DNA of 64,000 nucleotides from Candidatus Giovannonibacteria bacterium (GTDB lineage: Bacteria > Patescibacteriota > Minisyncoccia > JACPKW01 > UBA11713). The stretch spans positions 10,917 through 74,916 of the forward strand of contig JACOXM010000002.1 of NCBI GenBank assembly GCA_016176285.1, given 5' to 3'. Shown one piece after another: positions 1,748 to 47,301 of this stretch (its first letter is position 1; each line of letters starts with the position of its first letter). The position numbers and the translations under genes were made by a program. Under the pieces are notes generated by a model. That model did not search any database. It was not told the DNA's origin and saw only the letters and a list, made by a program, of their open reading frames with translations.

Positions 1748-3457
1748 GTGGGTCTTTTATTAAACAGAATCCGTTATGCCTTGCGCTTAATGGGTGGGAA
1801 AGAGCGGGGGATATTATTAATTCTTTCGCTTCTTCTCTTTATAGGTTTCGTTGGAACGGCAAATTTAATAAACCAGCGTTTTTCGGTTATTGTTCCGGAT
1901 GAAGGGGGTACTATTAAGGAAGGAGTGCTCGGACAGCCGCATTTCCCGAATCCCCTTTTGGCTATTGCAGACACTGATCGCGATATTGTGAACCTTGTAT
2001 ATGGAGGGCTCATGAAGCCCGATGGAAAAGGCAATTTAATTCCGGAACTCGCTGAAAGGTATGAAATTTCATCAGATGGATTGTCTTACACCTTTTTTCT
2101 GCAAAAAAACGCAAAATTTCATGATGGGAAAAAAATTACCGCCGATGACATAATTTTTACAATTGAAAGCGCAAAAAACCCCGCGATAAAAAGCCCTTAT
2201 AGAGCGGGCTGGGAAGGAGTTGGAGTAGAAAAAATAGACGAAAACACAGTACGCTTCTGGCTAAAAAAACCTTACGCCCCGTTTCTTGAAAACACTACTA
2301 TCGGAATTCTGCCAAAACACCTTTGGAAAGATATTACGCCGGAACAAATCAGTCTTTCTGGGCTTACAATAAAGCCGATAGGCTCAGGTCCTTATAAAAT
2401 TTCGAGTATCTCAAGAAATGGATCCGTTATTAAAAAATATAATTTGAATTCTTTCTCCGGATATGTATCGGAAAAATCTTATATAAATAAAATTATTTTT
2501 ATCTTTTATCCATCTGAAGTTGAAATGATAAGCGCTTATGAACGCGGCGAAATTAACGCGATTTCGGCGGTTTCCCCCCAAAATCTGCAAAAAATTAAAA
2601 GAAAGGATGGAATTGTAAAAGGACTGAATCTTCCGAGAGTATTCGGGCTTTTCTTTAATCCAAACGAGCAAAATATATTTACAGAAAAAATTGTAAGACA
2701 AGCGCTTGAAATGTCCGCGGACAAAAAGAAAATTATTAAAGAAGTTCTCGGCGGATATGCCAAAGAAATCTCCTCCCCTATCCCAGAAGGAAGCTTCGGT
2801 GCGCTCACAAATAATGATTCAATTTACGATCCAGTCGGGGCAAAAGCGCTTCTTGAAAAAAACGGATGGAAATTTAACAACGGCTCGAAAACATATGAAA
2901 AAGCGGCAAAGGGCCAGCCAACAAAAGAGCTGAGTTTTTCAATTTCAACTTCCAACGCCCCGGATCTTGTGCGTACAGCAGACATATTGAAAAAAGGATG
3001 GGAAAACATAGGTGTAAAAGTTGAGATACGGGTATTCGAAAATGAAGATCTGAAACAAAATGTAATAAGGACAAGAAAATATGATTCGCTTTTATATGGG
3101 GAGATTGTCGGCCGCGATCCCGATCCGTTCGCTTATTGGCATTCTTCGCAAAGAAATGATCCCGGATTAAATCTTGCGCTTTATACGTCTTCCAAGGTCG
3201 ACAAAATTCTGGAGGATGCAAGAAGCATCGTCTCGCGTGAAGACCGGGCACAAAAATACGCCGACTTTCAAAAAGAAATTGCCGCAGATTCACCAAGTAT
3301 TTTTTTATACTCTCCGGATTTCATTTATGTTATCCCAAAAAGTTTAAAGGGATTCGAAAACATAAATATAGTCACGCCAGCAGAACGATTTAGCAGCGTT
3401 AATAAATGGTATTTCGATACGCGATATGTCTGGAAAGTCCTTTATAAGAAAAGCTAG
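1748..3457 (+). CDS. ABC transporter substrate-binding protein, family 5 (oligopeptide/dipeptide-binding, OppA/DppA-like)
   Basis: GTG start and an N-terminal signal anchor. Region YGGLMKPDGKGNLIPELAERYEISSDGLSYTFFLQKNAKFHDGKKITADDIIFT is typical of SBP_bac_5 proteins. Confidence 0.75.
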   Translation: MGLLLNRIRYALRLMGGKERGILLILSLLLFIGFVGTANLINQRFSVIVPDEGGTIKEGVLGQPHFPNPLLAIADTDRDIVNLVYGGLMKPDGKGNLIPELAERYEISSDGLSYTFFLQKNAKFHDGKKITADDIIFTIESAKNPAIKSPYRAGWEGVGVEKIDENTVRFWLKKPYAPFLENTTIGILPKHLWKDITPEQISLSGLTIKPIGSGPYKISSISRNGSVIKKYNLNSFSGYVSEKSYINKIIFIFYPSEVEMISAYERGEINAISAVSPQNLQKIKRKDGIVKGLNLPRVFGLFFNPNEQNIFTEKIVRQALEMSADKKKIIKEVLGGYAKEISSPIPEGSFGALTNNDSIYDPVGAKALLEKNGWKFNNGSKTYEKAAKGQPTKELSFSISTSNAPDLVRTADILKKGWENIGVKVEIRVFENEDLKQNVIRTRKYDSLLYGEIVGRDPDPFAYWHSSQRNDPGLNLALYTSSKVDKILEDARSIVSREDRAQKYADFQKEIAADSPSIFLYSPDFIYVIPKSLKGFENINIVTPAERFSSVNKWYFDTRYVWKVLYKKS

Positions 3458-4148
3458 CGACCTCTCCCCGGTTTTATTCGTGCCTTCGACGGATAAACGC
3501 GCAATTTATGAAGTCGAAAGGGAGCAAAACGACCCGGAAGAACAAGGGCTTTTACAAAAATTAAAAATAAGGTATGATATAACAACCATTTTCCCAGGAC
3601 TCATTGGAAACGAGCTCCCTAAAACCTTCGGGCATTACCATCCAAGGAATTTAAGCGGCGTTGCTTATCCGGAAATATACGAAGTTATTGAAAACCGCGC
3701 CTGGTATTTGATTCAGCGGCCGAATAAAAATCAGCCAAAAGTAATCGAGGAAGTTTACCTGATCGAAACCAAGCAAAACGAAAAAGCTTTGATTCCCCCG
3801 GGCTTCGGGCATGTAACCATCAACCCAGAAAATAAGAATCTTGTAATGGCAAATTTTGTAGCAAATGGGTTTGATTTTGACTATCAAACTTATGAAAATC
3901 TCAGGGGAAGCGCTTACTACCTTCTTCACGCGGATAAGGACGAGTTAGTACGCCTTGAAAAAAACTCATATTACGATAAAGTTCCTGAAATAATAAAACT
4001 AAAGCCCAAGGAAATACCTGAATTAGGAATCACGTGGGATGTGCCGCTTTATGACATGATAAAAAAGCCGGAGACATTGGATTTTTTGATCCATCCGGAA
4101 AAATATCTGGAATTACTAACAATAAAAAACTGCTTTACGAAAATTTAA
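3426..4148 (+). CDS. Cupin-type (archaeal-type) glucose-6-phosphate isomerase-like protein
   Basis: Metal-ligand pattern GHYHP...PEIYEV and ALIPPGFGHVTIN resembles Pyrococcus cupin PGI (GHFHAK..AEVYV; VPPYWAHRTVN). Overlaps the upstream gene by 32 nt, so the start may be later. Confidence 0.5.
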   Translation: MSGKSFIRKASDLSPVLFVPSTDKRAIYEVEREQNDPEEQGLLQKLKIRYDITTIFPGLIGNELPKTFGHYHPRNLSGVAYPEIYEVIENRAWYLIQRPNKNQPKVIEEVYLIETKQNEKALIPPGFGHVTINPENKNLVMANFVANGFDFDYQTYENLRGSAYYLLHADKDELVRLEKNSYYDKVPEIIKLKPKEIPELGITWDVPLYDMIKKPETLDFLIHPEKYLELLTIKNCFTKI

Positions 4149-4155
4149 TCTTTTA

Positions 4156-4360
4156 GGGCGAGTGGCGAAACTGGCAGATTCACCCTCCCACCAATGCCCT
4201 CCTGGCGGAACTGGTAGACGCGCTGGCTTCAGGAGCCAGTGGGAGAAATCCCGTGGAGGTTCGAATCCTCTGGAGGGCACACGAGGGCATTGGTGGGAGG
4301 GCAAGCGCTTCAGGAGCCAGCGGGGTCAAACCCATGGAGATTCGAATCCTCTCTCGCCCA
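4156..4360 (+). pseudogene. Degenerate/split second tRNA-Leu-like gene whose 5' and 3' parts flank the intact tRNA-Leu
   Basis: The 5' part (4156-4179) has acceptor GGGCGAG + TG + a D-arm-like GCGAAACTGGCAGA. The 3' part (~4306-4360) has TTCAGGA-GCCAGC, variable arm GGGG-TCAA-ACCC, a T-arm with TTCGAAT, and acceptor CTCGCCC + A exactly complementary to the 5' GGGCGAG. It lacks the 3' D-stem strand and the 5' anticodon-stem strand, and has A at the normally conserved G53 position. Confidence 0.45.
4196..4279 (+). tRNA. tRNA-Leu (anticodon CAG), class II with long variable arm, CCA not encoded
   Basis: Hand-folded cloverleaf. Acceptor GCCCTCC/GGAGGGC is perfect. 3-bp D-stem. Anticodon stem CTGGC/GCCAG with loop TTCAGGA. 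Variable arm GGGA-GAAA-TCCC. T-arm GGAGG-TTCGAAT-CCTCT. Discriminator A. Confidence 0.8.
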
Positions 4361-4390: not shown

Positions 4391-6136
4391 ATGACACCAC
4401 AAAGACAATCCGTCGGACGGATTAAAACAAGAACGGCGCCCGCACTAAACGAAATGCCGAAACAAGCCGAAGGACCCGTTTTAAAATTTCTTCCACTGGG
4501 AGGATGCGGCGAGGTTACCAGAAGCTGCTACGTTTACGAATACAAAGATGACATTGTTATCGTGGACATGGGGCTGCAATTTCCGGAAGAGGATATGCCG
4601 GGAATAGATTACATTATTCCGAACGTGGAATATCTTATTCCAAAAAGAAAAAATATCCGAGGAGTGATCGTCACCCACGGCCACCTCGATCACATCGGGG
4701 CGATTCCCCACTTACTCGAGCCGTTGGGAAACCCCGTTATCTATACGAAACCCCTGACGCGCGGAATGATTTTGAAACGGCAGGAAGATTTCAGAGGAAC
4801 ACCTCACCCGAAAGTTGAACTCGTTGATGAAAACACTAAATTGAAATTAGGTTGTTTCGACGTGGAATTTTTCCATGTAAACCACAACATTCCGGATTCC
4901 ATGGGCGTCGTTCTTCGATCACCCGCGGGCACGGTCGTGCATACGGGCGACTGGAAATTCGATCACACTCCCGTGAATGAGCGTCCCGCCGACGTAGAGC
5001 GGCTCAAACAAATCGGCAAGGACAACGTGCTGCTTTTAGTTGCCGACTCGACCGGATCGCAATCCCCAGGAAAAACAATATCCGAATCGGAAATACAAAA
5101 AAATTTGGATGAAATTTTTACGAAAGCTAAGGGACGAATTATCGCCGCTACATTTTCATCCTTGTTAACGCGCGTACAGCAATTAATTTGGCTAGCGGAA
5201 AAATACGATAGAAAAGTTCTGATCGAGGGAACCTCAATGAAACAAAACGTTCAAGTTGCCCAGGAACTTGGATACCTGAAAATTAAAAAAGGCACAGTAA
5301 TCGGGCGCGAAGACCTCGCCCATACACCCAAAGAAAAAATAATAGTCGTATGCACCGGCGCGCAGGGCGAAGACAGGGCCGCGCTTATGCGCATCGCAAA
5401 CGGCGAGCATAAATACTTGCACTTGGAAAATACGGACTCCGTTATATTCTCTTCATCGGTAGTGCCGGGGAACGAAGCGTCCGTACAAAGATTAAAAGAT
5501 ATCCTATATAAAAAGGCTGAGAAGATTTTTCATTCAGAATCAATGGACATACATGCTTCCGGGCACGCAAAGGGAGACGATCTTAAAGAAATGATTCAAT
5601 TGATAAAGCCGAAATATTTCATTCCAATGCACGGCAATTATTTCATGTTAAAACTTCATTCCGATTTGGCAATTGATGCCGGAATAAAAAAAGAGAATGC
5701 TGTTATCGCGGAAGACGGAGAAATTATAGTTATGGATAAAAATGCCATTCGTAAATCCGGGCAAAAAGCCCCCGTAAACCTGATAATGGTTGATGGATTG
5801 GGCGTGGGAGACGTTAAAGAAGTTGTGCTTCGCGATAGGCAAATGCTCGCGGAAGACGGAATATTCGTAATTATATCCGTTGTAGATTCCGAAACCGGAA
5901 AAGTTAAAGGATCGCCGGATATTATTTCTAGGGGCTTCGTTTATTTGCGCGAATCCCGCGATCTCCTCTCGCAGGCAAGGCATTTAATTAGAAAAGTAAT
6001 CGAAGAATCCACCTCGCAAATGCACCCAATCAACTGGACCTTTCTCAAAGACGAACTCCGTGAAGAACTCGGAAAATTCTTATTCCGCAAAACAGAAAGA
6101 AGACCGATGGTATTGCCGGTGATCATCGAAGTCTAA
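4391..6136 (+). CDS. rnj: Ribonuclease J (metallo-beta-lactamase / beta-CASP RNase)
   Basis: HGHLDHIG zinc motif, beta-CASP region, ~580 aa and the typical RNase J N-terminus. Confidence 0.9.
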   Translation: MTPQRQSVGRIKTRTAPALNEMPKQAEGPVLKFLPLGGCGEVTRSCYVYEYKDDIVIVDMGLQFPEEDMPGIDYIIPNVEYLIPKRKNIRGVIVTHGHLDHIGAIPHLLEPLGNPVIYTKPLTRGMILKRQEDFRGTPHPKVELVDENTKLKLGCFDVEFFHVNHNIPDSMGVVLRSPAGTVVHTGDWKFDHTPVNERPADVERLKQIGKDNVLLLVADSTGSQSPGKTISESEIQKNLDEIFTKAKGRIIAATFSSLLTRVQQLIWLAEKYDRKVLIEGTSMKQNVQVAQELGYLKIKKGTVIGREDLAHTPKEKIIVVCTGAQGEDRAALMRIANGEHKYLHLENTDSVIFSSSVVPGNEASVQRLKDILYKKAEKIFHSESMDIHASGHAKGDDLKEMIQLIKPKYFIPMHGNYFMLKLHSDLAIDAGIKKENAVIAEDGEIIVMDKNAIRKSGQKAPVNLIMVDGLGVGDVKEVVLRDRQMLAEDGIFVIISVVDSETGKVKGSPDIISRGFVYLRESRDLLSQARHLIRKVIEESTSQMHPINWTFLKDELREELGKFLFRKTERRPMVLPVIIEV

Positions 6137-6141
6137 AAAAT

Positions 6142-6178
6142 AAAGAGGCGAGAATTTATTCTCGCCTCTTTATTTTTT
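6142..6178. terminator. Bidirectional rho-independent terminator between convergent rnj and the Cas2-fold gene
   Basis: Perfect hairpin AAAGAGGCGAGAA-TTTA-TTCTCGCCTCTTT, flanked by an A-run upstream and a T-run downstream. Confidence 0.6.
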
Positions 6179-6231
6179 AGAACTTACTCCTATAATACGC
6201 GATAGCGTAAAATAGGAACGGGTGAATAAAA

Positions 6232-6765
6232 TCAAATCAATTTAAATTTTTTTCTAAGATCATCATCTGGACTGATAGGAGCTTCGATATAATAAACATA
6301 ATCGGAAATATTGAAAAAGTTTATAATAAAATTTATTTCGTCTCTACAAAAATAAGGATATATAAAAATACTCTTCTGGAATTCTAAAAATCCGATGTCT
6401 TTTAATTTTTTGCGCAGAGCATCTCTAGCTTTTTTTCTTTGCTCTGGAATATCGAAAAGCACCATACGCCACTTTTTATCCCACCTTTTATTGCTAGGAA
6501 GTTTTAATTGTTTGAATATATACCATAAATTCCGCACCCTTCCCTTTTCTGTAAGGATTATTCTTTTATTATCTATTTGAATATATTTCAAAATTTTGAA
6601 TTTTCTTATTAAACTTTGCAGTTCTTTTTGATCTATCGTATTCCAGATATAATCAGCGTCTCTAATCAACTCTAATCTCTGCTGTTTATTTTTTGTAAAA
6701 CCTAACAAAGCGCCGGTGGCTAGTAGTTCTAAAACTTTTCCAGCAAAAGCACTATACCTAGACAT
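6232..6765 (-). CDS. PaaX-like putative regulator: N-terminal winged-HTH-like domain fused to a C-terminal Cas2-fold domain
   Basis: The C-terminal half (WRMVLFDIPEQRKKARDALRKKLKDIGFLEFQKSIFIYP...YVYYIE) fits the Cas2 / PaaX_C pattern (MLVLVTYDV...[24 protein letters not shown]). The N-terminus looks like a wHTH. There is no cas1 or CRISPR array in the window. Confidence 0.45.
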   Translation of the reverse strand: MSRYSAFAGKVLELLATGALLGFTKNKQQRLELIRDADYIWNTIDQKELQSLIRKFKILKYIQIDNKRIILTEKGRVRNLWYIFKQLKLPSNKRWDKKWRMVLFDIPEQRKKARDALRKKLKDIGFLEFQKSIFIYPYFCRDEINFIINFFNISDYVYYIEAPISPDDDLRKKFKLI

Positions 6766-6839
6766 ATACTTATATTAAGCGATAGCATTGTATAAGTACA
6801 AGTCTTTATGATTATCGGATTTGATAGTAAAATAAGAAA

Positions 6840-7823
6840 ATGGTAAAACCAGTAGCCGTTTCGGGCGTACAGCCCTCCGGGGAAATTCATATAGGAAATT
6901 ATCTAGGTGCGATTAAACAATTCGTAGAATTGCAGGAAAAATATCAAACATATTTTTTCATTGTTGACTTGCACGCGCTTACAGAAAATCCCGACCCGCA
7001 AAAATTAAGGGAACAAACTATTTCTTTGGCGGCCCTGTATCTAGCCTGTGGACTTAACCCAAAAAAGACTACCCTCTTTATTCAATCCCATGTTCCCGCT
7101 CACACTGAGCTCGGGTGGATTTTAAACACCTTAACACCACTCGGCGAACTGCAAAGAATGACGCAGTTCAAGGATAAAAGCGAGAAGCACGGGGTTCTCG
7201 CGGGGTTATTAAATTATCCCACCCTGATGGCCGCCGACATTCTTTTATATCGGCCTGAAGTTGTGCCGGTGGGAGAGGATCAAGTTCAACACTTGGAACT
7301 CACGAGGACGCTCGCAAGAAAATTTAATTCAAAATACGGAAAAACTTTTATCGAACCGAGGGCGCTAGTCGAAAAAGATGTTGCCAGGGTGATGGGACTC
7401 GATGACCCTACCAAAAAGATGTCCAAATCCGCCGCAAATCCGAATAATTATATTAATATTTCAGACAGCCCTGATGTTATCAGAAAGAAAATAAAAGTTG
7501 CTGTTACGGATTCCGGAAGCGAAATAAAATACGACTTGCAAACAAAACTGGGAATCTCGAACTTGCTTTCCATTTACAGCGTCTTCTCGGGAAATTCCAT
7601 AAAAAGCATCGAATTTAAATATTCGGGAAAAAATTACGGCATTTTCAAATCCGATCTCTCGGAATTACTTGTCGAAAAACTCTCCCCCATTCAGAAAAAA
7701 TATGAATCCTTTTTGAAAAATAAAAAAAGTCTGATGAAAATTTTAGACGACGGATCAAAAAAGGCGAATAAAACCGCGGAGAAAACATTAAAGGATGTGC
7801 GCGAAAAAATAGGGTTGATATAA
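6840..7823 (+). CDS. trpS: Tryptophanyl-tRNA synthetase
   Basis: Class I HIGH-type motif (SGEIHIGNYLG) and KMSKS. ~327 aa, typical of TrpRS. Confidence 0.9.
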   Translation: MVKPVAVSGVQPSGEIHIGNYLGAIKQFVELQEKYQTYFFIVDLHALTENPDPQKLREQTISLAALYLACGLNPKKTTLFIQSHVPAHTELGWILNTLTPLGELQRMTQFKDKSEKHGVLAGLLNYPTLMAADILLYRPEVVPVGEDQVQHLELTRTLARKFNSKYGKTFIEPRALVEKDVARVMGLDDPTKKMSKSAANPNNYINISDSPDVIRKKIKVAVTDSGSEIKYDLQTKLGISNLLSIYSVFSGNSIKSIEFKYSGKNYGIFKSDLSELLVEKLSPIQKKYESFLKNKKSLMKILDDGSKKANKTAEKTLKDVREKIGLI

Positions 7824-42492: not shown

Positions 42493-42587
42493 GACTAGAG
42501 TTTATATAAAAATTAAGAAATAAAAAAGGTACGAATATTAAAAACGCAAACCGTAAAAATACTTGCGATAGCAAACAAATTTACGAT

Positions 42588-44276
42588 TTATGGCAGCTTC
42601 TCCGGTTCGGAGGCGACGACAAATATCATCTTCCAAATCCTATCCCGGAATGCCTCATAGAATTCCGTGAATTCGCGGTTATTGAGCCACATTAATATGG
42701 CGCCTGCGAAGGCAAGGCCGAATATTCCCGCAATAAATCCCTGCAGAAAAATTCCTATAAACGTTTCTAAATTTAAGTAGGGGGCTAAAAGATTTAGGCT
42801 AACGTAAGAGACAATCCCCAAAACCGCGCTCGCGAGAACCGAATCGCGAAAAGACTTTGCCATAAATGAAAATGATTCTTCTTTATGAAAAATATTTTTG
42901 AATGATACGGCCAGAACAAGAAGGTTAATTAAACTCCCCAAGGAAACGGCTAAAGGCAGAACCAGAACCCCTCCCGCCCGAATGTCCCCAACTCTCAATA
43001 TTTCCAAAAACCACATGCGAAAAATTTCTGAATTATTAAAAAGATTTAGCAGCCACCAAGCGGAAAAAACCGTAACCGCAGAAGATATGATATTAACGAG
43101 TACAGGCAAAAAAGTGCGCCCGGCGGCGTAAAAAGCGCGTATATAAAGCATCATTAACCCCTGCGTAAGGATGGATAGCGCTAAAAGGAAAAGCGCCGCC
43201 GCGGTGAGTCTTGTATCAAGCCAGGAAAATGCCCCTACTCCTAGAATCACGCGGACAATTTGCGCACGCAAAATAATAAACATAACGGTTACGGGCAAAG
43301 ACCAGAAAAAAATGTGCCTGAATGCGAGCGAAAAATGGCCCAAGAAATCTTTATTTCCATTTTTTGCGTATGACGATGCGAGAGTCGGGAAAGCTGATAC
43401 GGAATAAGAAAGCGCAATAACTGAAAGCGGCACGGATTGAAGATTGAAAGCAAAATTCAAAATTGATACCGCACCCGCGCCTAAGGTGCTCGCGAAAGCC
43501 GTTATGACACTCATCACAATTTGGTTTAACGAAAGCCCGAGAGTCCTCGGTAATGAAAATTTCAAAAGCCTAATTACATCGTATGAAAATTTAGGCCTGC
43601 GGAATTTCAAAGAAAACCCCAAGGAAAAAAGCGTCGGAATTTGTATTGCAAAATGCATAACGGAACCTATTACAACACCCCAGACTATTCCTTCGATCCC
43701 CTTTGAAGGAACGAAAAAGATTATGCCGATTATTATTCCCAAATTATAGAAAAGGGGCGAGGCGGCATAGACATAAAACCTGCGGAATGACTGGATTACC
43801 GATGACAAAAGGTTCGAAAGCCCGAGAAAAAAGGGAGAAACAAGCAATAGGCGGCTTAAATTCACCACCTGAATTTTTTCTTCTCCGGAAAAACCTGGCG
43901 CAAAAAGCGGGACAAGCTCCTTCATAAAAATAAAAGCGAGAGAGACCAGCAAAACCGTGGCAATACTGAAAAATGAAAAAATATTTCCAAAAAATTCTTC
44001 GGCATCTTTCCTATCCTCGGAAATTTTTTTGAGAAGTACGGGAATAAGCGCAGTGGAAGCCGCAAAAAAAAGCGTGAGGGTGTAAATAAAGTCGGGTATT
44101 CTAAATGAGGCGTAATAAACATCAAGCGATCTTGATGCTCCAAATTCCGAAGCTAGAAGCCTGTCGCGAAAAAGCGAAAGAATATCCGCAAATATTCCAG
44201 CCAACGCCAAAACAAGAGCGGTTCTTGTGACGCTTTTAAGCTCACCCCCAAAAAGAGAAAATAATTTTTTAGCCAT
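42588..44276 (-). CDS. murJ: Lipid II flippase MurJ (MviN)
   Basis: FGASRSLDVYYASFRIPDFIYTLTLFFAASTALIPVL, plus the 14-TM MOP-superfamily pattern. Confidence 0.85.
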   Translation of the reverse strand: MAKKLFSLFGGELKSVTRTALVLALAGIFADILSLFRDRLLASEFGASRSLDVYYASFRIPDFIYTLTLFFAASTALIPVLLKKISEDRKDAEEFFGNIFSFFSIATVLLVSLAFIFMKELVPLFAPGFSGEEKIQVVNLSRLLLVSPFFLGLSNLLSSVIQSFRRFYVYAASPLFYNLGIIIGIIFFVPSKGIEGIVWGVVIGSVMHFAIQIPTLFSLGFSLKFRRPKFSYDVIRLLKFSLPRTLGLSLNQIVMSVITAFASTLGAGAVSILNFAFNLQSVPLSVIALSYSVSAFPTLASSYAKNGNKDFLGHFSLAFRHIFFWSLPVTVMFIILRAQIVRVILGVGAFSWLDTRLTAAALFLLALSILTQGLMMLYIRAFYAAGRTFLPVLVNIISSAVTVFSAWWLLNLFNNSEIFRMWFLEILRVGDIRAGGVLVLPLAVSLGSLINLLVLAVSFKNIFHKEESFSFMAKSFRDSVLASAVLGIVSYVSLNLLAPYLNLETFIGIFLQGFIAGIFGLAFAGAILMWLNNREFTEFYEAFRDRIWKMIFVVASEPEKLP

Positions 44277-46635: not shown

Positions 46636-46845
46636 ATGTCTGCGAGAGAGTATAGTGAATATCTGAAAATACAAGAAGCGGCTTTTTTTCTTGGGGTAAG
46701 CAACGCCACAATGCGCCTTTGGGATAAAAATAAAAAATTAGAACCTTCCAGGCATCCAAAAAGTAAATACAGGCTATATAAAATCAGCATTCTTCAGAAG
46801 TTTAAAGAAAAAAGAAAAAAGAAATATCACAAGTCAGACAAATAA
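46636..46845 (+). CDS. Small MerR-superfamily / excisionase-like HTH DNA-binding protein
   Basis: HTH segment LKIQEAAFFLGVSNATMRLWDKNKKL, ~69 aa, basic tail. Confidence 0.5.
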   Translation: MSAREYSEYLKIQEAAFFLGVSNATMRLWDKNKKLEPSRHPKSKYRLYKISILQKFKEKRKKKYHKSDK

Positions 46846-46878: not shown

Positions 46879-46886
46879 GATTTATA

Positions 46887-47294
46887 GATACGCCTGTAAG
46901 CCGAATTCTGTTCACCTTCGCTTTTGCAAAGGATCGGCGATCATTTATCTCGAATCCATCTTGCGATGGAAGCTGAAGCGGCACTTCCCACTCGATATAT
47001 CGATATTCGAAATTTCGAGCGGGACACGGCCTTGCACCGGGCAGGGTTTTCCACGATATGGCGTTGCCGACATATCGATCCCGCTTTTAGCGGGAACTTT
47101 TCACCTTTTATCTCGACTTTATATCAAGATTAGTATTGTCTCTGTGGCACTATTCCCGTCCCGACTTGCATCGGGAGGTGGGCGTTACCCACTGCCTTTT
47201 TCATCAACAAGAAGGGATCTTGCCCTCGGCTTGTCGAAGGGTGTTCGGACTTTCCTCTCTAATTTTTTGAATTAGAGCGATCGCCAAGCGTATC
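46887..47294 (-). ncRNA. rnpB: RNase P RNA, bacterial type A
   Basis: The minus strand contains GAGAGGAAAGTCCGAACACCC (the P4 5' strand GGAAAGUCCG) preceded by a P3 hairpin, the 3' conserved GGTGAACAGAATTCGGCTTACAGG (ACAGAAxxCGGCUUA), and a P1 helix GATACGC/GCGTATC. ~410 nt. Two spurious plus-strand ORFs overlap it. Confidence 0.8.
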
Positions 47295-47301
47295 AATTCG
47301 C

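Follow-up and report, generated by a model that had tools for sequence, protein, structure and literature searches.

The stretch of DNA analysed here, hereafter the window, comprises 64,000 nucleotides of a Candidatus Giovannonibacteria metagenome-assembled genome (MAG; contig JACOXM010000002.1, positions 10,917 to 74,916 of the forward strand). It contains, at positions 6232–6765 on the minus strand, an open reading frame (ORF) that starts with ATG and encodes a 177-amino-acid protein combining a winged helix-turn-helix (wHTH) with a Cas2-like domain of the PaaX_M type. The ORF had been delineated in a first-pass annotation made from the sequence; its position was exact, the peptide quoted for it, MVLFDIPEQRKKARDALRKKLKDIGFLEFQKSIFIYP, is present, and its product is identical to HYT00_00465. 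On either side of the gene stands a copy of a palindrome of its own, a feature absent from the first-pass annotation and the most informative one of the locus. The upstream copy (6760–6805) consists of arms of 15 nt each, AGACATATACTTATA and TATAAGTACAAGTCT, around the centre GCGATAGC (6779–6786); it overlaps the ATG (6763–6765) and a −10-like TAATAT hexamer (6772–6777, minus strand), and ~35 nt separate its end from the start of the divergent tryptophanyl-tRNA synthetase gene, trpS. The downstream copy (6188–6217), TCCTATAATACGC-GATA-GCGTAAAATAGGA with the core ACGCGATAGCGT at 6197–6208, sits between the stop codon of the ORF and a probable terminator shared with the convergent RNase J gene, rnj. 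The motif GCTATMGCNTAWWATA occurs twice in the 64 kb, versus 0.05 expected, both times on the gene strand and once on each side of the gene.

The order of the locus, with trpS divergent from the gene and rnj convergent with it, is kept in three orthologous Giovannonibacteria loci. In these three loci the upstream palindrome forms a conserved block amid an otherwise divergent intergenic region, and the downstream copy is present as well. A TATAAT, TATTAT or TAATAT box lies 6–7 nt before the ATG of the orthologs, inside the right arm of the upstream palindrome. The position of this −10-like box together with the start codon under the upstream site suggests a leaderless transcript and autorepression.

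At the protein level, two parts are distinguished. The N-terminal half (6502–6765, minus strand) is variable, with a mean pairwise identity of 35% within the family, as opposed to 63% for the Cas2-fold domain (residues ~93–165; 6271–6489, minus strand), whose elements follow the order β-α-β-β-α-β. The latter matches the Pfam PaaX_M model ('PaaX central Cas2-like domain') over residues 93–163 with 82.6 bits (E = 2e-23; cut-off 24), and its invariant residues are W95, D96, W99, R100, F104, D105, E108, R114, Q130, K131, S132 and P137. An AlphaFold2 model built from 40 homologs (predicted local distance difference test score, pLDDT, 85) shows three helices and a β-hairpin wing, a linker helix, and then the β-α-β-β-α-β domain. 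When this model was compared to the PDB with Foldseek, the top matches were E. coli PaaX (8A39) and Rv0674 (3KFW), followed by a long series of Cas2 structures; VapD (3UI3) was also present and the Lrp/AsnC structure 4CZD was a low-ranked match. A PDB sequence search with the single protein as query gave no match, and a PHROGs search gave nothing meaningful. With PaaX_M above threshold and a winged helix before it, the protein falls within the PaaX_M-domain superfamily. These data bear out the first-pass description of a C-terminal Cas2 pattern preceded by a wHTH-like N-terminus in a compact PaaX-type architecture, the PaaX C-terminal domain being absent, and show that the protein is a winged helix plus Cas2-like domain from a large uncharacterised Patescibacteria family.

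The homologs are ~180 amino acids long, have PaaX_M as sole domain, come from Patescibacteria (Parcubacteria-type lineages), and are named 'hypothetical', 'Cas2' or 'PaaX' in the source databases. Clustered at 50% identity, the matches of an exhaustive profile search amount to 610 clusters at E ≤ 1e-30, a number that rises to 3,047 at E ≤ 1e-10; nearly all of the best 150 clusters are 160–240 amino acids long, with a few shorter fragments. Their C-terminal domain carries the motif WDKKWR-V-FDIPE...RDALR-KLK-LGF-EFQKS-F-P. Among contigs taken from one genome per species, 494 loci were confirmed, with two or three paralogs in several genomes, and the source MAG encodes at least one further paralog (P0011, 58% identity). 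Searches for PaaX/Cas2-like proteins, Patescibacteria palindromes and Rv0674 found neither the family nor its palindromes described in the incomplete searchable literature. The family is a truncated, more Cas2-like branch of the PaaX_M regulator superfamily that lost, or never had, the ligand-binding domain. A solo Cas2-fold protein is in itself ordinary, being a known Pfam domain subject to misannotation; what is new is the bracketing by cognate palindromes.

The names given to the homologs raise two questions of identity. The protein could be an orphaned bona fide CRISPR Cas2, or a VapD-like toxin of a toxin–antitoxin pair, a reading that we hold to be very improbable and already largely refuted. 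Eight Cas2 models of PADLOC match the protein (E = 8e-7 to 6e-4), and some database records label family members 'CRISPR-associated endonuclease Cas2'. Two marks of Cas2 are found, namely the ferredoxin-like β-α-β-β-α-β fold and a conserved Asp ending the first strand: D105, invariant in the family, aligns with the Asp at the β1 end of the Cas2 protein SSO8090, and Q-K-S-x-F aligns with its Q-x-S-x-F. However, the protein scores 21.6 bits with both the Pfam CRISPR_Cas2 model (PF09827), slightly below the 23.8 cut-off, and the NCBIfam/TIGR cas2 model (TIGR01573; cut-off 24.5), has double the size of Cas2, and includes a wHTH fused to the Cas2-like domain. No CRISPR array turned up in the window, which covers 64 kb of a contig of about 90.7 kb, when it was scanned for tandem repeats, direct repeats and 18-mer arrays; a PADLOC scan of the 71 window ORFs detected neither cas1 nor another core cas gene, in agreement with the gene having been described as solo. 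Neither a CRISPR-like array nor a conserved cas neighbour was present in 80 related loci (up to 20 kb each), and array scans of 96 loci gave nothing relevant. The toxin version can draw on the VapD structure among the Foldseek matches; yet no small partner gene conserved within ±5 genes was found in the 80 loci and the rate of evolution of the protein resembles that of housekeeping proteins. A toxin of a toxin–antitoxin pair was ruled out because a partner gene is not conserved in these loci. Of the two functions first put forward, a regulator or a toxin-like RNase, the regulator is the better guess, and the VapD-like toxin is not supported.

The second question is whether the protein is an orthologue of PaaX, the phenylacetyl-CoA-responsive repressor of phenylacetate catabolism. 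The PaaX_M domain is present, PaaX heads the structural matches and IMG labels homologs 'PaaX', but the probability of such an orthology is negligible and we consider it refuted for practical purposes. The NCBIfam PaaX equivalog model TIGR02277 gives 26.1 bits, as compared to a cut-off of 264.55. In the same Pfam test, PaaX-N (PF07848), PaaX_M (just 33.5 bits) and PaaX_C (PF08223) were all seen in E. coli PaaX, whereas PaaX_M (PF20803) was the only one detected in the ORF protein. The neighbours of family members are housekeeping genes, and paa genes are absent near every member examined, including all 80 loci. Effector-binding domains of regulators had also been named among the Cas2 folds outside CRISPR. 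Such a role is not supported here: PaaX is described as a wHTH followed by a dimerisation motif and a C-terminal phenylacetyl-CoA-binding domain (PMC9493321), so that the middle domain is given as the dimerisation motif and the domain absent here as the one that binds the ligand. The ORF protein corresponds to the first two modules of PaaX without the ligand-binding domain. Because D105 and Q-K-S-x-F align with Cas2 while a profile alignment finds neither the Cas2-type Asp nor the Q-K-S motif in E. coli PaaX, the family is, as judged from these alignments, nearer to Cas2 in sequence than PaaX itself.

We then surveyed the palindromes across the family, in the 80 loci (1.30 Mb), as sites with the centre C[G/T]AT[C/A]G and at least 10 of 14 arm positions paired. 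This survey identified 118 centre-anchored palindromes, versus 0 in shuffled sequence. Forty-two are located just upstream of the family gene (median centre at −46 from the start), 52 just downstream (+36 from the stop), 2 inside and 22 elsewhere, so that 94 of the 118 flank the gene. At least one palindrome is found in 60 of the 80 loci and both sides are occupied in 32, with a median centre-to-centre distance of 640 bp. When the scan was made free of any motif, 62 of 186 strong palindromes fell within the ~3% of sequence flanking family genes, and the conserved centre was found in 51 of these 62, as compared to 14 of the 124 elsewhere. The palindromes are 36–42 bp long: palindromy and identity between cognate copies stay at 0.7–0.95 up to 17 bp from the dyad and reach baseline past 22 bp, with a dip at positions 5–8 and a plateau at positions 9–17. 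The median identity between upstream and downstream arms is 0.79 within a locus but 0.36 between loci (95th percentile 0.57). The paralog P0011 in the source MAG has its own palindrome pair. The −10-like hexamers found in upstream palindromes show no clear side preference family-wide (16 in the right half, 14 in the left half). In one ortholog lineage, at the locus of P0005 (L088, 6656–7060), an extra ORF encoding a 134-amino-acid HTH_3 (Xre-type) protein lies between the family gene and rnj, and the downstream palindrome was not detected. Taken together, these results show that the association between gene and palindrome is statistical, cognate and co-evolving. Two copies of its own ~40-bp palindrome around each family gene suggest a self-contained regulator-plus-operator module.

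Are these palindromes sites in duplex DNA, or do they fold? The protein might be a hairpin-specific enzyme or binder, the palindromes being stem-loops in mRNA, or in single-stranded DNA or cruciforms, that are bound or cut by the Cas2-like domain; the outcome would be post-transcriptional autoregulation, for example through 5′ and 3′ mRNA hairpins, with the start codon sequestered in the window copy. We consider this reading unlikely. It fits the alignment of D105, E108 and Q-K-S with Cas2 hallmarks that E. coli PaaX lost, and the ATG contained in the upstream arm of the window; moreover, palindromy is maintained across segments that differ between cognate sites, which resembles compensatory change. 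The mismatches between arms show, on the sense strand, a slight excess of G·T over A·C (52 versus 32), but the ratio is the same (15:9) at distal sites, which have no fixed orientation with respect to transcripts; a hairpin in sense RNA was rejected on the weakness of this bias and its equal at these sites. In addition, 58% of the arm mismatches are of non-wobble type. The four central nucleotides, which would form the loop, are preferentially self-complementary: GATC, TATA and mixed centres were observed 56, 16 and 22 times, versus about 48, 8 and 38 expected from half-site frequencies. The centre is also invertible, its orientation differing between two copies of one locus (L014). The TATAAT-like box of the orthologs in the right arm would leave the left arm untranscribed, and the arm sequence, beyond its pairing, is conserved in orthologs at 70–76% protein identity. 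The self-complementary centre, its inversion, the non-wobble mismatches and the lack of T-tracts after the downstream copies favour, at the level of sequence, duplex DNA over RNA.

Of the 22 non-flanking palindromes, six have arms that agree at 0.79–1.0 with those at the family gene of the same locus. In two syntenic genome pairs (L054/L026 and L057/L041), the distal site is located at the same position within the pair. In L054/L026 it lies about 85 nt upstream of an operon (L054 15955–18186; L026 14844–16760) encoding an HTH_DeoR-domain protein, a sigma factor of the extracytoplasmic function (ECF) type and a DUF5667 protein, and continuing with a large surface-type protein. In L057/L041 it lies between a Sigma70_r4/HARE-HTH gene and a small ORF. 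The two genomes of a pair have different arms, but inside either genome the three sites (upstream, downstream and distal) are alike, having changed together. Such a concerted change is what a locus-encoded specificity factor would predict and, because upstream, downstream and distal arms change together, the bracketed protein is the obvious candidate for that factor.

The block formed by the palindrome, the gene and the second palindrome is present in metagenomic relatives whose TrpS is 79–82% identical, and in ortholog L091 at 84%. In slightly more distant relatives (TrpS 63–74% identical), rnj and trpS are adjacent and both the family gene and the palindrome are absent, which indicates a gain or loss of the block in one piece. 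The empty rnj–trpS junctions consist of gaps of 7 to 164 nt or, in L099/L101, of an unrelated segment of ~1 kb (2978–4000), richer in G+C and carrying a 190-amino-acid minus-strand ORF, so that this junction may be a recurrent insertion spot. A target-site duplication of a pre-existing palindrome was rejected, as the empty sites have no palindrome. In the window, the block (6188–6805) nearly fills the interval 6182–6819, from the end of the rnj terminator (6181) to the trpS promoter region.

These observations raise the possibility of a selfish or formerly mobile cassette, in which the block would move or be recombined as a whole and the palindromes would be termini recognised by the encoded protein, by analogy with the ends of RAYT/REP (repetitive extragenic palindromic) or IS200/IS605 elements, the Cas2-like domain replacing the HUH domain. 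Besides the unit gain or loss, the tight bracketing, the several paralogs per genome and a neighbourhood that is not conserved across the family are in its favour. Nevertheless, we judge it quite unlikely. Wherever identical proteins were compared (24 and 15 contigs read), their genomic context was the same, and recent mobility was rejected on this sample. The orthologs are syntenic and evolve at housekeeping rates: their identity is 70–76%, as compared to 79–84% for TrpS, 79–87% for RNase J, 70–78% for SSB and 55–64% for phosphoglucomutase. The paralogs are old (35–58% identity) rather than recent copies. Away from the gene flanks just 22 sites were counted in about 1.26 Mb, so that REP-like dispersal is not seen in this sample, and the distal ones occupy conserved positions in different genomes. 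Pfam detected no transposase or HUH signature, and neither a His-hydrophobic-His motif nor an invariant Tyr is among the conserved columns. Finally, 2.9 million viral contigs gave a single, weak match, without palindromes. With an identity inside the 55–87% range of its neighbours, the gene is, as far as these comparisons indicate, stably inherited under purifying selection.

Based on these data, we propose, with a probability of about 0.55, that the gene encodes a minimal PaaX-type, dimeric, sequence-specific DNA-binding autoregulator; we infer that the protein is the palindrome-binding factor, acts on duplex DNA in dimeric form and is a repressor of transcription. The Cas2-like domain would make a homodimer, by analogy with PaaX and Cas2 and because the protein corresponds to the wHTH and dimerisation modules of PaaX. 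This dimer would bind the cognate 36–42 bp palindrome. The pairing of a variable wHTH with variable arms, and of a conserved C-terminal domain with a conserved centre, suggests how: recognition of the locus-specific arms would fall to the pair of winged helices, the cognate information being highest 9–17 bp from the dyad, and the conserved centre C[G/T]AT[C/A]G would lie under the conserved core of the dimer. Binding of the upstream copy, which overlaps the start codon and the −10-like box, would result in autorepression. PaaX likewise represses its own promoter (PMC9493321). Further cognate copies, found in other genomes beside other operons, notably those with sigma-factor genes, would define a small regulon, and paralogs of one genome, which carry different arms, would act as orthogonal regulators.

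Several observations weigh against this proposal. The link between protein and palindrome consists of co-occurrence and co-variation. The downstream copy, which a repressor would not need past its own stop codon, is commoner (51 loci) than the upstream copy (41 loci), and the gene that follows it is co-directional in 25 cases and convergent in 24. The two copies show no helical phasing (Rayleigh p 0.3–0.9), leaving looping unsupported. Arm similarity is not correlated with wHTH identity globally (rho 0.007) and tracks it only among close orthologs, above about 60% identity; fast switching of specificity among paralogs could explain this, yet it weakens the idea that the wHTH reads the arms. 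A consensus promoter scan called no promoter at the upstream site of the window, where the assignment is that of a −10-like hexamer. In L054, palindromy is maintained across segments that differ between cognate sites of the same genome, a pattern that fits a requirement for a hairpin or cruciform but also the correction of quasipalindromes by template switching, which is a known process. Lastly, invariant D105 and E108 would have no part in a pure dimerisation scaffold, and the Cas2-type Asp and Q-K-S, retained here and missing from E. coli PaaX, hint at a chemistry beyond dimerisation.

Two other roles for the downstream copy were tried and rejected: an operator of the next gene, given the even split in the orientation of that gene, and an intrinsic terminator, since a T-tract follows only 5 of the 52 copies. 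As a long shot, the Cas2-fold domain, its Cas2-type acidic site being intact, may act chemically on its own palindromes and nick, recombine or copy them. If true, this would explain the pair of identical copies around every gene, the gain and loss as a unit, and arms that are made uniform inside one genome but switch from lineage to lineage. The module would then be related, in free-living form, to the half of CRISPR adaptation that handles repeats, or be a new kind of REP/RAYT-like system without HUH domain.

Regarding the surroundings of the gene, rnj (4391–6136, plus strand) is a syntenic neighbour only. The first-pass annotation had remarked on the position of the gene next to rnj, but their adjacency is limited to the close Giovannonibacteria orthologs and the gene is missing from the relatives in which rnj and trpS abut; it is a matter of synteny, not function. 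The two convergent genes are separated by a perfect inverted repeat of 24+24 nt with 2 nt between the arms (6132–6181), with a G+C-rich core and A/T runs on both strands; it is likely a bidirectional intrinsic terminator common to rnj and the ORF, outside the module, and a simple terminator scan did not call it. On the other side, trpS (6840–7823, plus strand) is separated from the gene by a 74-nt intergenic region and is, by position, a possible secondary target of the upstream palindrome. Clustering of the genes within ±5 of the family gene in the 80 loci yielded scattered housekeeping genes only. In 10 of the 80 loci a threonyl-tRNA synthetase-like gene lies no more than five genes away from the family gene, which seems above chance but may be due to shared synteny among related genomes.

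The window contains a third palindrome of the same class at 42548–42589, between the murJ stop and the lepA start, with the centre GCGATAGC and 10 of 14 arm pairs. Its arms are 21–32% identical to those of the ORF palindromes, hence non-cognate, and the site presumably belongs to another paralog. These arms have no obvious match to those of P0011 either, which suggests at least a third specificity in the genome.

Additional features were recorded in the window. A tRNA-Leu(CAG) gene (4196–4280) is followed, 27 nt further, by a 46-nt, 85%-identical copy of its 3′ half (4307–4352), directly upstream of rnj, which could be an integrase-type insertion/excision remnant or a decayed tandem tRNA; the region matching 4196–4352 is variable in the orthologous loci, with adh_short fragments and a GIY-YIG ORF. 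PADLOC matches among the window ORFs comprise mad3 (E = 6e-32), mad8 (two ORFs, 1e-15), pVip-kinase (4e-26), VakA and a Csa3-like protein (3e-12), possibly reflecting generic kinase, ATPase and HTH domains. The RNase P RNA (bacterial type A, 171.8 bits) is encoded at 46881–47296 on the minus strand, and a 69-amino-acid MerR/HTH_17-like ORF lies at 46636–46842 on the plus strand, just upstream of it.

The Patescibacteria, also known as the candidate phyla radiation (CPR), are ultra-small bacteria that have not been cultivated, and few regulators can be recognised in their tiny genomes. If every family member regulates through a ~40-bp operator that is legible from its own flanks, it would be possible to predict the regulons of CPR bacteria from sequence alone; the sites beside sigma-factor operons are examples. 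The naming of such proteins as Cas2, a recurrent misannotation by which the numbers of 'CRISPR' components in CPR genomes are inflated, would be put right as well. No textbook model accounts for the second palindrome that recurs downstream of the gene.

Four known systems can be compared with the family. The RAYT/REP and IS200/IS605 systems share with it a single gene flanked by palindromes, a palindrome class that co-varies with the gene, and several classes per genome. However, the HUH/Y1 domain is absent here, recent movement is not evident, and the palindromes are not dispersed in high copy, the distal copies being at conserved positions. Lrp/AsnC proteins also combine an N-terminal wHTH with a β-α-β-β-α-β oligomerisation domain and are typically autoregulated; as there is no sequence or profile match and the C-terminal domain is of the Cas2/PaaX_M type and not of the RAM/ACT type, this is an analogy and not a membership. 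Within the Cas1–Cas2 complex, Cas2 forms a homodimer placed along the DNA duplex. The Asp at the end of β1 and Q-x-S-x-F of Cas2 (SSO8090, 3EXC; S. pyogenes, 5ZYF) are aligned in the family, whereas the ORF protein is below the thresholds of the Cas2 models, fused to a wHTH and twice as large, with no cas1 or array in the loci examined. The closest architecture is that of PaaX (8A39; also 3L09 and Rv0674/3KFW), in which an N-terminal winged helix precedes PaaX_M. The PaaX operator, TGATTC-N27-GAATCA, is a 39-bp dyad (PMC9493321), comparable to the 36–42 bp palindromes described here. Unlike the PaaX operator, these palindromes run through the whole site, have a conserved centre and are located on both sides of the gene. 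The ORF protein differs from PaaX in its length (177 versus 316 amino acids), in the lack of PaaX_C, in an N-terminal domain not recognised by the PaaX-N model and in the absence of paa genes nearby, and it keeps the Cas2-type Asp and Q-K-S that are absent from E. coli PaaX. The family stands between Cas2 and PaaX, with Cas2 signature residues in the architecture of a DNA regulator, and bears on the recruitment of the Cas2 fold for, or from, DNA-binding roles.

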